A stretch of DNA of 49,599 bases from Syntrophomonadaceae bacterium. GTDB taxonomy: Bacteria > Bacillota > Syntrophomonadia > Syntrophomonadales > Syntrophomonadaceae. How positions within the stretch are numbered: position 1 is the stretch's first letter; each line of letters opens with the position of its first letter. The stretch is taken from contig JAQVWB010000001.1 in NCBI GenBank assembly GCA_028698695.1, forward strand, positions 1 to 49,599, given 5' to 3'. The notes under the pieces were generated by a model. The model was not told the DNA's origin and ran no database searches. It saw only the letters and a list, made by a program, of their open reading frames with translations. Made by a program: the position numbers and the translations under genes. Positions 10,580 to 34,227 of this stretch are shown in pieces.

Positions 10580-10810
10580 GAATTTTATATCTATGACGAT
10601 GATAAAGAGGAGTAATTAGGTTGCCTTTATGAAAGAGAGCCGGATTGGGTGAGAACCGGCAAAGGCTTATAATGAAGGGCGCTTTGGAGTCACAGGAGGA
10701 ACACCACTTAAAGTGGTAAGTAAAACCTGACCCATGAGAGAGGGCCGTTGAGGCCAATCAGGGTGGAACCGCGGGTATACCCGTCCCTGTTTTCAGGGGC
10801 GGTTTTTTGT
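10580..10810 (+). promoter_or_regulatory. T-box riboswitch leader (glycine, GGC specifier) with intrinsic terminator
   Basis: Stem I AGAGA/GGGTGAGA elements (10634-10652). Candidate specifier GGC at 10678-10680. T-box sequence AATCAGGGTGGAACCGCG (10756-10773). Terminator CCGTCCCT/AGGGGCGG (10781-10802) plus T6 (10803-10808). Sits upstream of glyQ. Confidence 0.85.
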
Positions 10811-10898: not shown

Positions 10899-11810
10899 AT
10901 GAATTTTCAGGAGATTATTTTGCGTTTGCAAAACTTCTGGGCCGGTCAAGGCTGTATAATCCAGCAACCTTATGATGTCGAAAAGGGTGCCGGGACAATG
11001 AATCCAGCTACTTTTCTGCGAGCATTGGGACCTGAACCATGGAAAGTTGCCTATGTTGAACCTTCCAGAAGACCTACTGACGGGCGATATGGAGAGAACC
11101 CCAACCGTTTGCAGCATTATTATCAATATCAGGTAATATTAAAACCTTCACCGGATGATGTAATTGATTTATATTTACAAAGTCTGATGGATTTAGGCAT
11201 AGATCCGCAGCAGCATGATATCCGTTTTGTTGAGGATAACTGGGAATCGCCTACTTTAGGTGCCTGGGGTCTGGGTTGGGAAGTGTGGCTGGATGGTATG
11301 GAAGTTACTCAGTTTACTTATTTCCAGCAATGTGGTGGGTTTGATTGCCATCCGGTAAGTGCCGAGATAACTTACGGACTGGAGCGCATAGCCATGTTTA
11401 TACAAAATCGGGACAGTGTTTATGATATAGAATGGGTAGACGGGATTACTTATGCTGATGTTCATCATCAGGCAGAAGTAGATTATTCCCATTACAATTT
11501 TGAACATGCGGATGTAGCTTCACTGATGACCATGTTTAATTTGTGTGAAAAGGAAGCTTTACAGGTAATGAAGGCTAAACTGGTACAACCGGCCTATGAT
11601 TATGTATTGAAATGTTCCCATTTATTTAACCTGCTGGATGCCCGTGGGGCTATCAGTGTTACGGAAAGAACCGGTTACATTGGCAGAGTCCGCAACATGG
11701 CACGAATGGTGGCAGCAGCTTTCCTAGAGCAGCGCCATAATCTGGGCTATCCACTTATAAAGGACCCGGCACTTAGAGAGCAGTTAATTAATGCAGAGGA
11801 GGCGATCTAA
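10899..11810 (+). CDS. glyQ: glycine--tRNA ligase alpha subunit
   Basis: 303 aa, highly conserved ([13 protein letters not shown]..., [14 protein letters not shown]). RBS AAAGGAGGAAAG. Confidence 0.97.
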
Positions 11811-22409: not shown

Positions 22410-22484
22410 TCCTCGATAGCTCAACGGTAGAGCATCCGGCTGTTAACCGGAGGGTTGTAGGTTCGAATCCTACTCGAGGAGCCA
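22410..22484 (+). tRNA. tRNA-Asn (GTT), CCA encoded
   Basis: Hand-folded cloverleaf: acceptor TCCTCGA/TCGAGGA, anticodon loop CTGTTAA, T-loop TTCGAAT. 75 nt. Confidence 0.92.
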
Positions 22485-22496
22485 TATGAATTGCAG

Positions 22497-22530
22497 AGCG
22501 GTAACCCCTGTGCAGAGGTGCCGCTTTTTC
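22497..22530 (+). terminator. intrinsic terminator after tRNA-Asn
   Basis: AGCGGTA.CC.CT / AG.GGTGCCGCT stem followed by TTTTT (22526-22530). Confidence 0.6.
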
Positions 22531-22564
22531 CTTGAAAGTCCGTCACAAACCGATTTATTTGCTA

Positions 22565-22593
22565 TTGACCTTTACTCAGATTTTTTATATACT
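22565..22593 (+). promoter_or_regulatory. sigma-A-type promoter for the three-tRNA unit
   Basis: TTGACC (22565-22570), 17-nt spacer, TATACT (22588-22593). Confidence 0.55.
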
Positions 22594-22620
22594 TACTCTT
22601 GCGAGGTTTTGGCGGAACTC

Positions 22621-22696
22621 GGGCCTATAGCTCAGTTGGTAGAGCTACCGGCTCATAACCGGTTGGTCCCAGGTTCGAGTCCTGGTAGGCCCACCA
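22621..22696 (+). tRNA. tRNA with CAT anticodon (elongator type; probably tRNA-Ile2 read via lysidine, otherwise tRNA-Met), CCA encoded
   Basis: Acceptor GGGCCTA/TAGGCCC, anticodon arm ACCGG-CTCATAA-CCGGT, T-loop TTCGAGT. 76 nt. No initiator features (the 1-72 pair is intact and the anticodon stem lacks GGG/CCC). Confidence 0.9.
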
Positions 22697-22701
22697 TTTC
22701 A

Positions 22702-22729
22702 GAAGTCAGAGGCCGGAAGTCAGAGGTCG
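22702..22729 (+). repeat. 14-nt tandem direct repeat x2 (GAAGTCAGAGGYCG), member of a local repeat family
   Basis: GAAGTCAGAGGCCG GAAGTCAGAGGTCG, one mismatch. Reverse-complement pieces (CTCTGAC, CCGACTTCC, CCGACCTCC) recur at 22824-22842 and 23071-23079. GAAGTCGG recurs at 23096-23103. Confidence 0.8.
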
Positions 22730-22846
22730 GATAAACAAATTCGATACTCGACAAGGCATGCTGATATAGGAGTTAGAGTTCAGAGTTTATAGAGAGCAAA
22801 AGGTTTAGTATCTGACCTCCTATCTCTGACAACCGACTTCCGTTAA

Positions 22847-22921
22847 GGCCCCTTGGTCAAGCGGTTAAGACACCGCCCTTTCACGGCGGTAACAGGGGTT
22901 CGAGTCCCCTAGGGGTCACCA
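22847..22921 (+). tRNA. tRNA-Glu (TTC), CCA encoded
   Basis: Acceptor GGCCCCT/AGGGGTC, anticodon loop CTTTCAC, T-loop TTCGAGT. 75 nt. Confidence 0.92.
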
Positions 22922-22924
22922 TTC

Positions 22925-23000
22925 GGGCGATTAGCTCAGCTGGGAGAGCGCCTGCCTTACAAGCAGGATTTCGGCGGTTCGAGCCAGTCATCGCCCACCA
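22925..23000 (+). tRNA. tRNA-Val (TAC), CCA encoded
   Basis: Acceptor GGGCGAT/ATCGCCC, anticodon loop CTTACAA, T-arm GGCGG-TTCGAGC-CAGTC (one G-A mismatch). 76 nt, 3 nt after tRNA-Glu. Confidence 0.9.
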
Positions 23001-31150: not shown

Positions 31151-31894
31151 TTGAGTATAAGGAAATATGATATCCTGACTCTTTTTCCACAGATGTTTGT
31201 ATCGCCCTTTACGGAAAGTATTATAAAAAGGGCTCAGGAAAAAGAACTGGTCGAAATTAATACTATTAATATAAGAGATTTCGCTCCCGGCAGGCAGCGC
31301 CAGGTTGATGATTACCCTTATGGGGGAGGCGCGGGCATGGTTATGAAGGCTGATGTACTGGGTAATGCTCTTGATCAGGTCACATCTGCCCATACATATG
31401 TGGTATATATGTCTCCCCAGGGCACCAGGCTTAATCAGGAAAAGGTCAGACAGCTGTCGCAATATGAGCGTATGGTTATTTTATGCGGACATTATGAGGG
31501 TGTGGACGCACGCATTTTTAGCCGCATAAATGAGGAAATTTCTATTGGAGATTATATATTAACTGGTGGAGAAATACCGGCCATGGTGCTGCTGGATGCC
31601 ATAATTCGTTTGATACCGGGAGTGTTAGGGGACGAAAACTCAACAGTAGAGGAAAGTTTTTCTTCCCGCTGGTTGGAATATCCCCAATACACCAGACCGG
31701 CTGAATATGAGGGGCAAATGGTTCCAGGGATACTCCTTTCCGGACACCATGAGAATATACGCCGTTATCGAAAAAAGCAAAGCTTATTAACCACCCTGCT
31801 AAAACGACCGGATTTACTATTAAACAGAAAATATGATGCCGAGGAACGACAGTTATTAGAAGAAATATTATTTAATGGGGAGCAAGTTGAGTGA
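31151..31894 (+). CDS. trmD: tRNA (guanine37-N1)-methyltransferase
   Basis: YDILTLFPQMF N-terminus and SAM-binding GGEIPAMVLLDAIIRLIPGVLG. TTG 31151 is 6 nt after GGGAGAG (ATG 31124 is an alternative). Confidence 0.93.
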   Translation: MSIRKYDILTLFPQMFVSPFTESIIKRAQEKELVEINTINIRDFAPGRQRQVDDYPYGGGAGMVMKADVLGNALDQVTSAHTYVVYMSPQGTRLNQEKVRQLSQYERMVILCGHYEGVDARIFSRINEEISIGDYILTGGEIPAMVLLDAIIRLIPGVLGDENSTVEESFSSRWLEYPQYTRPAEYEGQMVPGILLSGHHENIRRYRKKQSLLTTLLKRPDLLLNRKYDAEERQLLEEILFNGEQVE

Positions 31895-32466
31895 AAGAAT
31901 CCAAGGTATATATTGCCCTGCTGCATAATTCCATGTACAACAAGCGCATGGAGGTTATAACTACTTCAGTTACTAACCTTGATTTGCATGATATTTCACG
32001 GGCAGCCTGTACTTTTGCCGTGGAGAAATTTTTTGTAGTCCATCCTTCACCTAATCAGCAAGAACTGATTAATGATATACTGGACTATTGGAGAACAGGT
32101 TATGGAGGCATCTATAATCCGGACAGAAAAGAAGCCTTTAATATCCTGTCTCTTACTTCCAACCTTCAGGAGGTAAAGAAACAGATTGAAGAGCAGTGTG
32201 GTGAAGCGCCTATAACCATTGCTACAGATGCCAGGATATATCCCAATACTGTATCCTATAGAGCTTTAAAAAGCAGGATAAAGGGTGAAACCCGGCCTTA
32301 TCTGATATTATTTGGAACTGGCTGGGGAATGGAAAAATCCTGTATGGAAGCCTGTGATCTTATTCTGGAGCCGATCCAACCGCTGGCAGAGTACAATCAT
32401 TTATCGGTCAGAAGCGCCGTATCAATAATACTGGACCGCTTGTTGGGAGATGATTGGTATGAATAA
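31891..32466 (+). CDS. predicted SPOUT-like RNA methyltransferase (trmD-adjacent family, Methyltrn_RNA_4-like)
   Basis: 191 aa with a GTGA overlap with the trmD stop. VTNLDLHDISRA and LILFGTGWG motifs recall the family often encoded next to trmD. Assigned from memory only. Confidence 0.6.
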   Translation: MKESKVYIALLHNSMYNKRMEVITTSVTNLDLHDISRAACTFAVEKFFVVHPSPNQQELINDILDYWRTGYGGIYNPDRKEAFNILSLTSNLQEVKKQIEEQCGEAPITIATDARIYPNTVSYRALKSRIKGETRPYLILFGTGWGMEKSCMEACDLILEPIQPLAEYNHLSVRSAVSIILDRLLGDDWYE

Positions 32467-32635: not shown

Positions 32636-32986
32636 ATGAACGATATAATCAGAAGTATTGAAGCTGAACAATACAAACAGGATTTACCTGATTTTGGACC
32701 TGGCGATACCGTAAAGGTACATGTAAAAGTTGTAGAAGGAACACGGGAAAGAATCCAGATATTTGAGGGCACCGTAATTAAAATCAGAGGTGCCGGACTG
32801 TCCCAGACTTTTACGGTCAGGAGAGTTACTTATGGGGTAGCAGTGGAAAGAACATTTATGATGCATACTCCCAGAATAGCTGCTATTGAGGTAACCCGAC
32901 GGGGTAAAGTACGCCGGGCCAGATTGTTTTACTTACGCGATCGCGTCGGTAAGAAGGCCAGAGTCAAGGAAAAAGGCCGTTTCTAA
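32636..32986 (+). CDS. rplS: 50S ribosomal protein L19
   Basis: [38 protein letters not shown] follows GGAGGT. Confidence 0.96.
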
Positions 32987-33003
32987 TCGCAAAATTTTAA
33001 CCG

Positions 33004-33032
33004 GGAGAATGCCGCAGGGCATTCTCCTTTTT
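33004..33032 (+). terminator. intrinsic terminator after rplS
   Basis: 10-bp stem GGAGAATGCC-GCAG-GGCATTCTCC followed by TTTTT. Confidence 0.85.
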
Positions 33033-33060
33033 GCTATCAATTATGAAATAGACATATAAT
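33031..33060 (+). promoter_or_regulatory. sigma-A-type promoter driving the GC-rich element and rbgA
   Basis: TTGCTA (33031-33036), 18-nt spacer, TATAAT (33055-33060). Confidence 0.55.
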
Positions 33061-33066
33061 ATAATT

Positions 33067-33328
33067 ATGATTCTACTGCATAAAGGTATATTGTGCTGAG
33101 CTGGATGTATAAACACTCCGTTGCCAAGACTCTGCATGGGAAACACCAACGGATTGTTTCGCGGTTCCAGGGGGACGTTCCGATTCCGCGTCCATGCAGG
33201 GCGTCACTCTCGCCCCATCCATGGGGCTCGCCCCCTTCCGCCACTTCACCTTCGCTGGGTGTTTCTTCCATGCTCCGTCAACGGCTCCTGCGTATTTATA
33301 CGTCTAAACCGGGTTTTTGCAGTGGAAT
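33067..33328 (+). ncRNA. unclassified GC-rich structured RNA candidate (rod of four nested helices plus a G/C-run core)
   Basis: No credible ORF. Nested pairings: 33070-33080/33318-33328, 33104-33113/33295-33304, 33118-33123/33279-33284, 33134-33147/33258-33273. G-U wobbles favour the + strand. See findings. Confidence 0.5.
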
Positions 33329-33369
33329 GAATTATCAGTCTCATTATAAAAATGTGGAGGTTTAAATAC

Positions 33370-34227
33370 TTGAATATTAACTGGTATCCGGGCCATATGG
33401 TTAAAGCCAAACGGGCGATAGAAGAAAATATTAAAATGGTTGATATGGTAGTCATGCTCCTGGATGCCCGGGCTCCTTTTTCCTGTCGAAATCCGGAATT
33501 GGAAAAGATCGCCCGCCGCAAGAAAATTGTAATAGTATTAAATAAAGCTGATTTGGCGGCACCTGCTTCCACTAAGGCCTATATCAAAAGATTAATTGAC
33601 CAGGGGTTGGTGGCGGTGGCTATGGATTCCATAAGCGGTAGAGGACAAAAAGAGGTTATTGAAGTGTTACGCAAGGCTTATCAGGATAAAGCAGACATAA
33701 TGATTAGCAAGGGCAATCGGGTAAGACCTGCCCGGGTTATGATTACCGGAGTGCCTAATATAGGTAAATCAACCTTTTTAAATACCCTGGTGCGTCAAAA
33801 AGCGGCACGAACCGGTGCTAAACCTGGTATTACACGAGGGAAGCAATGGGTTAGGGTACGGGATGATATAGAGTTTATGGATACTCCCGGTTTAATGTGG
33901 CCTAAAATAGATAATACCGAGCAGGGATTGAAACTGGCCTTGCTGAATATAATTGGTGAAAATGCTTACGAGGAAGAAAAAGTAGCTTTATATTTAATTA
34001 ATATATTGCAAACCCGATTCCCTGAAGTTTTAAGTGATTACTATAAAGTAACTGATTTGCATGTAAGCAGTGAAGAAATACTGGAACAGATATCCCGTAA
34101 GAGAGGGCATCTGTTAAAAGGTGGTTCGCTGGACCTGGAAAAGACCTGTAAGCACCTGTTGATTGATTACCGAAGTGGTACCCTGGGCAGGATCAGTCTG
34201 GATGATGATTATTTATCTGAGGTATAG
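33370..34227 (+). CDS. rbgA: ribosome biogenesis GTPase A (YlqF)
   Basis: Circularly permuted GTPase: NKADL (G4) precedes GVPNIGKST (G1) and DTPG (G3). INWYPGHM N-terminus. TTG 33370 is 9 nt after GGAGG. Confidence 0.92.
   Translation: MNINWYPGHMVKAKRAIEENIKMVDMVVMLLDARAPFSCRNPELEKIARRKKIVIVLNKADLAAPASTKAYIKRLIDQGLVAVAMDSISGRGQKEVIEVLRKAYQDKADIMISKGNRVRPARVMITGVPNIGKSTFLNTLVRQKAARTGAKPGITRGKQWVRVRDDIEFMDTPGLMWPKIDNTEQGLKLALLNIIGENAYEEEKVALYLINILQTRFPEVLSDYYKVTDLHVSSEEILEQISRKRGHLLKGGSLDLEKTCKHLLIDYRSGTLGRISLDDDYLSEV

Follow-up and report, generated by a model that had tools for sequence, protein, structure and literature searches.

A TwoAYGGAY-like structured element, apparently mobile, inserted between rplS and rbgA in a Syntrophomonadaceae bacterium

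The 49,599-nucleotide (nt) stretch of DNA analysed here (contig JAQVWB010000001.1 of a Syntrophomonadaceae bacterium; hereafter the window) carries a G+C-rich, rod-like element of about 260 nt in the spacer between rplS and the ribosome-assembly gene rbgA (ylqF). All positions given below are those of the window, and loci other than the window copy carry codes of the form L157. The rplS gene ends with its stop codon at 32986 and is followed by a terminator (33003-33028) with a T-tract, while rbgA begins with a TTG start codon at 33370, preceded by a GGAGG ribosome-binding site; the region under study is the spacer between both. Base composition sets the spacer apart, with 42 of 60 bases being G or C in 33181-33240 and a G+C content of 61% in the element core, versus 41.5% for the whole window. 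One promoter-like signal lies just downstream of the rplS terminator:

33031-33060, plus strand: sigma-70-like site TTGCTA-18-TATAAT, 10 of 12 matches, candidate rbgA promoter

An earlier sequence-only reading of this spacer had described a promoter-equipped rod of four nested helices, P1 to P4, enclosing small G/C-rich hairpins, and had offered three origins for it: a structured leader of rbgA, a stand-alone RNA with a 6S-like shape, or a palindromic insertion akin to a miniature inverted-repeat transposable element (MITE). The terminator, the TTGCTA-18-TATAAT site, the ribosome-binding site, the TTG start and the G+C count all lie where that reading placed them. P1 (11 base pairs (bp), one of them G-T), P2 (10 bp, one G-T), P3 (6 bp), P4 and the small hairpins are complementary as it described, as is an alternative pairing between CTGCATGG and CCATGCAG.

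Gene callers place a 68-amino-acid (aa) open reading frame (ORF) on the minus strand of the element in the window, and ORFs of 69-130 aa in its homologues. Pfam gave no hits for the called ORFs, and a search with the 68-aa ORF as query returned only that ORF. Substitutions among the homologues lack codon periodicity (0.52, 0.57 and 0.51 by codon position), and stop codons are present in every frame in some homologue. Since the substitutions show no codon periodicity, the ORFs of 68-130 aa that stand in public collections are artefacts; they are spurious, as the sequence-only reading had maintained.

The ends of the element carry several of the marks of an insertion:

33069-33329, minus strand (sense by analogy with TwoAYGGAY, see below): whole inserted element, 261 nt, delimited by the best empty-site alignment and the ends of homology
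33063-33068, unstranded: left copy of the direct repeat AATTAT, a putative target-site duplication; sister locus L011 has a single AATTAAT there
33330-33335, unstranded: right copy of the direct repeat AATTAT, a perfect 6-bp match to the left copy
33069-33080, unstranded: left terminal inverted repeat GATTCTACTGCA, covering one P1 arm; the same arm sequence is present in L157, L158 and L163
33318-33329, unstranded: right terminal inverted repeat TGCAGTGGAATG, matching the left arm at 11 of 12 positions

Judged by its RbgA relatives, the organism is an uncultured member of the Syntrophomonadaceae. The element is identical in contigs from the same species. Two sister lineages, with RbgA proteins 92-94% identical to that of the window and 91% identical to each other, have the same gene order and rplS-rbgA spacers of 110-114 nt without the element; a Syntrophomonas erecta-type outgroup (RbgA 67% identical) has a 75-nt spacer that also lacks it. 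L007-L012 and L168/L169 are the loci in which the element was found to be missing. Because two sister lineages and the outgroup are without the element, a single gain in the lineage of the window is the most economical history. In a scan of all possible deletions, excision of 33066-33329 best restored the spacer of sister L011, and homology to L157, L158 and L163 stops at about 33068 and 33329. By our estimate, junctions in such AT-rich DNA would match perfectly over 6 nt by chance about 1 time in 1000. Elsewhere the flanks of L158 match at four of six positions by eye, and no target duplication is recognisable at the other homologues. No match to the element was found by BLAST in plasmid and phage collections, and no transposase was found. 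On sequence comparison, the element is a lineage-specific insertion, apparently a mobile one.

An inverted duplication of flanking DNA, with the left P1 arm as old flank, was suggested by CACTGCAAAAG at the site in sister L008, and was dropped since both arms are conserved in L157, L158 and L163 and L011 favours a clean excision of 33066-33329. The L008 empty site (L008:2960-2975) also holds GTTGCACTGCAAAAG, which resembles the element arm ATTCYACTGCAAAAA. The comparison with L011 suggests that this resemblance is a coincidence, with a target preference or an old remnant still conceivable. Two independent assemblies of the window's species (contigs L002 and L004) both start at window position 33208, inside hairpin 1 of the fold described below; the shared break could reflect another copy or variant of the element, differences between strains, or low coverage where the hairpins are GC-rich.

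The insertion point lies about 8 nt downstream of the -10 box of the TTGCTA-18-TATAAT site. Sister L008, without the element, has TTGCTA-16-TATAAA at its own spacer, so the sigma-70-like site is older than the insertion and, if real, would be rbgA's own promoter. The description of the element as promoter-equipped is consequently not supported.

Homologues were recovered by two routes. L157, L158, L159-162 and L163 were found via a spurious 69-aa plus-strand ORF, in a search of 1.84 billion representative proteins that yielded four more spurious ORFs, and L145/L136 by scanning metagenomes a second time with the hairpin pattern. A first, strict metagenome pattern gave no match, nor did a chimeric query joining six spurious-ORF translations, and scans of viral contigs returned unrelated hairpin repeats or nothing. 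A loose two-hairpin pattern found at least 120 loci in a genome collection, mostly gammaproteobacterial, with none of the element's family among the matches listed. The family has at least six distinct members including that of the window, and these six have pairwise identities of 61-79% over approximately 265 nt. The homologues sit in unrelated contexts in other metagenomic organisms, and their orientation to the neighbouring genes varies:

L145: beside a two-component system and an ATP-binding cassette (ABC) transporter; sense strand antisense to both
L159: beside mutS2 and a penicillin-binding-protein gene; sense strand downstream of the latter, in the same sense
L163: beside a LexA-like peptidase gene; sense strand downstream, in the same sense
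L158: beside a divergent gene pair; sense strand upstream of one gene, in the same sense

With nhmmer, each locus showed a single copy, and the window none besides the one in the spacer. Near-identical copies, sought by called ORF or core pattern, were absent from the collections searched. For the 49.6-kb window and the contigs of the homologues, the copy-number check proposed by the sequence-only reading gives a single copy each. Every sampled strain of the L159 species has the element.

The structure itself is well supported. As a single sequence, the window copy folds with a z-score of -3.8 on the plus strand and -4.1 on the minus strand, and none of 200 shuffles folds as well. RNAalifold, applied to the six sequences (alignment A7), returned a rod of 58 pairs. 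It consists of an outer helix that includes P2, a short GCC/GGC helix, a long middle helix that includes P4, two inner stems and, at the apex, two hairpins. On the minus strand, the main parts of the rod are as follows:

33101-33116, minus strand: 3' arm of the outer conserved helix (holds P2), pairing with 33292-33307; 16 pairs, 7 of them changed on both sides
33292-33307, minus strand: 5' arm of the outer conserved helix (P2), A7 helix 1
33136-33153, minus strand: 3' arm of the long middle helix (P4 extended), pairing with 33254-33271; 16 pairs, 3 changed on both sides
33254-33271, minus strand: 5' arm of the middle helix (P4), A7 helix 3
33169-33177, minus strand: 3' arm of the inner stem at the base of the two-hairpin junction, which it closes by pairing with 33229-33236, A7 helix 6
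33229-33236, minus strand: 5' arm of the inner stem, A7 helix 6
33212-33227, minus strand: hairpin 1, GCCCC-AUGGAU-GGGGC, loop 33217-33222; stem kept in all six homologues, AYGGAY loop in five of six
33186-33199, minus strand: hairpin 2, CUGC-AUGGAC-GCGG, loop 33190-33195; AYGGAY loop in all six homologues

Across the alignment 91% of cells are paired, and 14 of the 58 pairs change on both sides, versus 5.4±1.6 in shuffles (none of 500 reached 14) and 4-8 pairs in controls with slid partners. The middle helix includes an A-U to C-G swap in three of the six sequences. The rod is a selected structure, maintained by compensatory substitutions, and the sequence-only reading is supported in its prediction of a real, compositionally foreign, rod-like non-coding element. 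P1, P2 and P4 are conserved or covarying. The P1 sequence is conserved in the window, L157, L158 and L163, and its arms have decayed in some copies (L163, L145 and L159). P3 and the GCC/GGC helix are alternative registers that exclude each other and cannot be told apart. The conserved apex consists of the hairpins at 33212-33227 and 33186-33199, both within the GGGGG/CCCCC stem that the sequence-only reading gave as an alternative; this stem is conserved, whereas the GGGCG/CGCCC and CGCGG/CCGCG hairpins of that reading are not.

The rod outline had invited comparison with 6S RNA, and the called ORFs might have indicated a small protein gene. Neither account has any appreciable probability: the former meets with no Rfam 6S match at any threshold used and with an apex where two hairpins form a junction in place of an open bubble, and the latter with the missing codon periodicity, the stops in every frame, the lack of Pfam hits and a 68-aa ORF without relatives.

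Of the three origins offered by the sequence-only reading, a MITE-like insertion has proved the best, given the inverted ends, the 6-bp duplication, the empty sister site and the unrelated loci. Taken further, the element could be a purely selfish MITE, with the rod and hairpins serving transposition at the DNA level as transposase or host-factor sites on folded single strands, and any RNA being incidental. In favour of this are the inverted ends, the duplication and the empty sister site, the unrelated loci and varied orientations of the homologues, the symmetry of the covariation between strands, the decayed P1 arms of L163, L145 and L159, and the related two-hairpin repeats of Saccharospirillum, which have many copies in each genome. 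However, there appears to be one copy per genome fragment, with no near-identical copies in the collections searched and no transposase found, and in the L159 species the element is fixed across the strains sampled. Furthermore, the whole 200-nt interior keeps its pairing by compensatory changes and the loop type is invariant; to our knowledge, ordinary MITEs do not keep interior pairing in this way. We consider a purely selfish MITE unlikely, although it is the main rival of our preferred reading.

The Saccharospirillum repeat is approximately 120 nt long (GAGCGTTTTAGCATGAGCG...TGAATCCCATGGATGGGATTCA...CCATGGAYGG), carries two hairpins with AYGGAY loops and is present in many copies per genome in several species, at loci that include L017, L025, L036, L039, L046, L047, L061, L065, L066, L074, L075 and L080. 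It is therefore a multi-copy relative of the two-hairpin theme. A viral contig of 66% G+C (IMGVR_UViG_3300025133_000003; L006:290-375 and L141) has a tight cluster of GATCCCCATGGATGGGGATCGG, with two copies direct and one inverted; beyond the hairpin, these viral repeats are unrelated to the element.

On the minus strand, the two apical hairpins and their enclosing stem resemble the TwoAYGGAY motif (RF01731, clan CL00106; Weinberg et al., 2010, PMC2864571), the closing stem of which was described in 2010 as "often very large" (PMC2864571). The corresponding match to the Rfam model is:

33127-33280, minus strand: sub-threshold RF01731 match, 34.4 bits, model positions 1-168 end to end

This match has an E-value of 9.7e-4 for a 501-nt search at permissive thresholds, and the gathering score of RF01731 is 43 bits. 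The scores of the window (34.4 bits), L145 (35.0 bits) and L164 (28.5 bits, partial) were always obtained on the sense strand. AYGGAY fits 11 of the 12 apical loops over the six homologues, each loop being closed by C-G. A long rod is also found in L024, a bona fide TwoAYGGAY locus (76.6 bits), where the closing rod is approximately 70 bp.

Several results weigh against this identification. The scores of 28-35 bits lie below the gathering score of 43, and RF01731 gave no match at E ≤ 1 to L157, L158 or L163 in a 9-kb search. Conversely, a model of the family, R1, fails to report L024 at E ≤ 5; R1 was built from six sequences only (effective number 1.09), and members of the family score 126-164 bits against it. 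As R1 does not match L024, the architecture held in common with TwoAYGGAY could be convergent. In view of the sub-threshold scores, the three non-matching homologues and the failure of R1 to find L024, the element is best called TwoAYGGAY-like, a putative divergent variant rather than a member of RF01731. The statement that it belongs to no known RNA family is not supported: Rfam at gathering thresholds finds nothing in the region, but the minus strand resembles TwoAYGGAY.

Other two-hairpin elements with long flanking inverted repeats align full-length to R1 at 20-36 bits. This group includes L143:14-131, L033:3810-3925, L116, L135, L131, L093, L089 and L098, drawn mostly from gammaproteobacterial genomes and metagenome contigs, and none of those tested reaches the TwoAYGGAY threshold. 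The class appears to be much broader than RF01731.

The functional molecule is most likely, though by no means certainly, a minus-strand RNA, antisense to both rplS and rbgA. The minus strand is favoured by the AYGGAY loops and the RF01731 matches, by a G-U pair of the inner stem that does not vary (columns 80/136, all six sequences), by the balance of 17 G-U versus 11 A-C pairs on the sense strand, and by the fold energies, which are lower on the minus strand in all six homologues (consensus fold -61.6 kcal/mol sense, -51.1 kcal/mol antisense). A U-G pair in hairpin 2 becomes C-A on the plus strand. Set against this, Watson-Crick covariation is equally good on the plus strand, and the G-T wobbles of P1 and P2 in the window, and of P3 in several homologues, fit the plus strand; for these wobbles the preference of the sequence-only reading for the plus strand stands, but its plus-strand assignment as such is not supported. 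Neither a convincing promoter nor a terminator was found for the sense strand, which also counts against a minus-strand RNA. A weak candidate lies in the flanking DNA:

33331-33358, minus strand: weak promoter-like site TCCACA-16-GATAAT, 9 of 12 matches, firing into the sense strand

Four of the six homologues have -10 boxes with poor -35 boxes, those of L158 and L163 lying just upstream of the sense 5' end. A sense-strand promoter was rejected because the -35 boxes are poor.

A plus-strand RNA would accord with the proposal of a structured leader or riboregulator of rbgA, perhaps a two-fold switch, and so would the position of the element, in plus-strand orientation, between the promoter-like site and the rbgA ribosome-binding site. 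The same wobbles fit it, and three sequences (window, L157 and L158) keep the alternative 8-bp pairing of the switch, which includes one compensatory change. However, this pairing fails in three of the six homologues, so that the switch holds for half of the family, and the plus strand folds less well in all six. Moreover, the element is missing from the orthologous spacers, being found upstream of rbgA in no relative examined, and no homologue adjoins rbgA, the neighbours being unrelated and the orientation variable. A dedicated rbgA leader is accordingly very improbable.

Our preferred reading, which we hold to be probable rather than assured, is that of an inserted, apparently mobile, TwoAYGGAY-type structured element whose minus-strand RNA presents paired loops to a candidate partner. 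The rod would be a stable scaffold, offering a dimeric partner two identical C-AYGGAY-G loops at a spacing of 27 nt, a partner of that kind being suggested by the stiffness of the rod and by the identity and spacing of the loops. The unit may spread as a MITE-like element or by horizontal transfer. As a side effect, rbgA transcripts started at the upstream promoter or arising from rplS read-through would carry about 260 nt of complementary rod in their leader. The MITE-like features are incomplete, with one copy per contig, no transposase and a clear target duplication in the window only, and this tells against the mobile part of the reading.

The most concrete candidate partner is CsrA, for which the RNA would be a one-dimer decoy. 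High-affinity hairpins for CsrA and RsmE have the consensus CANGGANG, established by SELEX (systematic evolution of ligands by exponential enrichment) and for RsmE-hcnA, to which we take the C-AYGGAY-G loops of the element to be equal. In the window, CAUGGAUG and CAUGGACG, 27 nt apart, are the only two CAYGGAYG octamers in 49.6 kb. Firmicutes antagonise CsrA by means of the protein FliW, and we know of no RNA decoy of CsrA that has been established in this group. No CsrA-like ORF is present in the window, and nothing useful was found in the literature on CsrA in Syntrophomonas. TwoAYGGAY RNAs have been proposed as CsrA-binding small RNAs (sRNAs) of Clostridia (RMfam, PMC4333381).

A preprint of September 2026 (bioRxiv 10.64898/2026.09.22.753630) may assign a different function to these RNAs, which would weigh against a CsrA decoy: in its term counts, TwoAYGGAY has 52 mentions and CsrA none. 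The same counts give 14 for 'reverse transcriptase', probably in the abstract, 24 for 'cDNA' (complementary DNA) and 5 for 'TwoAYGGAY loci', which would fit a non-coding RNA that partners a reverse transcriptase encoded at another locus, or serves as its template, and is copied into cDNA in place of acting as a protein decoy; such counts may stem from unrelated sections or methods of the preprint. A crude regular-expression test for PQG...YxDD found no such ORF in the window or in approximately 160 two-hairpin loci, and the neighbours of the six homologues and L024 have no gene in common. We regard a role with a reverse transcriptase as improbable.

TwoAYGGAY was described in 2010 and has no demonstrated function in the literature covered. 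The locus reveals a TwoAYGGAY-like branch that the Rfam threshold misses, and a filled site beside empty sister sites, with defined ends and a target duplication, makes for an unusually clean natural experiment. We found no earlier description of insertion hallmarks for the TwoAYGGAY class. If the element is mobile, the very long and variable outer stem of the class, together with its lack of a fixed gene neighbourhood, may need rethinking. It is even conceivable, as a tentative and rather doubtful extension, that TwoAYGGAY-class RNAs, or at least the branch of this element, are cargo of low-copy mobile elements. A MITE-like unit with inverted ends and a 6-bp target duplication would then bring a selected pair of CsrA-type hairpins, mounted on the rod, into one genome after another, as a transposable protein-decoy RNA and not a host-encoded regulator. 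Compact two-hairpin constructs could serve the published CsrA-decoy hypothesis in Clostridia-type bacteria.

Other features of the window were noted in passing. A gene of the PF09936 (Methyltrn_RNA_4) family, encoding 191 aa, lies between trmD and rplS (31891-32466, plus strand), and is kept in that place in all Syntrophomonadaceae relatives examined. A T-box leader at 10590-10791 on the plus strand (94.9 bits versus an Rfam gathering score of 93) lies upstream of ORFs starting at 10899, and four tRNA genes are clustered at 22410-22997 on the plus strand.

Among known systems, the leaders and riboswitches of ribosome-biogenesis genes are similar to the element in one respect, its position with a promoter-like site before it and a ribosome-assembly gene after it; unlike them, it is not conserved at the rplS-rbgA locus and has no riboswitch match. 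The likeness to bacterial MITEs, such as Correia of Neisseria, RUP of pneumococcus and ERIC/IRU of enterobacteria, is closer. These are also non-coding, 100-300 nt long and bounded by terminal inverted repeats; they sit in AT-rich intergenic DNA next to a short target duplication, their transcripts fold into a long hairpin, and close relatives differ in having them or not. The element differs from them in its copy number of about one per genome fragment, in its covarying interior and conserved asymmetric two-hairpin apex, and in having no known parent insertion sequence or transposase.

The sRNAs CsrB, CsrC and RsmX/Y/Z likewise display GGA in hairpin loops, in the context of CANGGANG, and the spacing in the element would suit one CsrA dimer. 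Whereas Csr/Rsm sRNAs have 5-22 sites, the element has two loop sites and one stem-buried CAUGGAAG; it conserves a pyrimidine before GGA and, unlike them, lacks a recognisable promoter-terminator pair. There is neither sequence homology nor an Rfam match to the Csr/Rsm families. An array at L138:560-745 (metagenome contig Ga0307428_1011215; 64% G+C), with a similar one at L142, has six hairpins with CAUGGAUG or CAUGGACG loops in approximately 180 nt and resembles a CsrB/RsmZ-style multi-hairpin RNA built of AYGGAY loops; it has no Rfam match.

The last comparison is with TwoAYGGAY. The element has a longer, segmented rod of approximately 58 pairs and comes from Syntrophomonadaceae of digester or fermentation metagenomes, whereas TwoAYGGAY comes from the human gut; its family also shows inverted ends, a target duplication and an empty site, for which we found no counterpart in descriptions of TwoAYGGAY. 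One hairpin stem of TwoAYGGAY contains a tandem G-A according to RMfam, citing earlier work (PMC4333381), and by eye a tandem G-A of the UGAGC/GCGAA type can be seen in hairpin 2 of L145, L159 and L163, though it is not evident in the window, L157 or L158. What the two have in common is a pair of adjacent hairpins with C-G-closed AYGGAY loops inside a short stem, an unusually long and nearly perfect outer stem around both hairpins, and an intergenic location in Clostridia-type genomes with no fixed neighbour gene.

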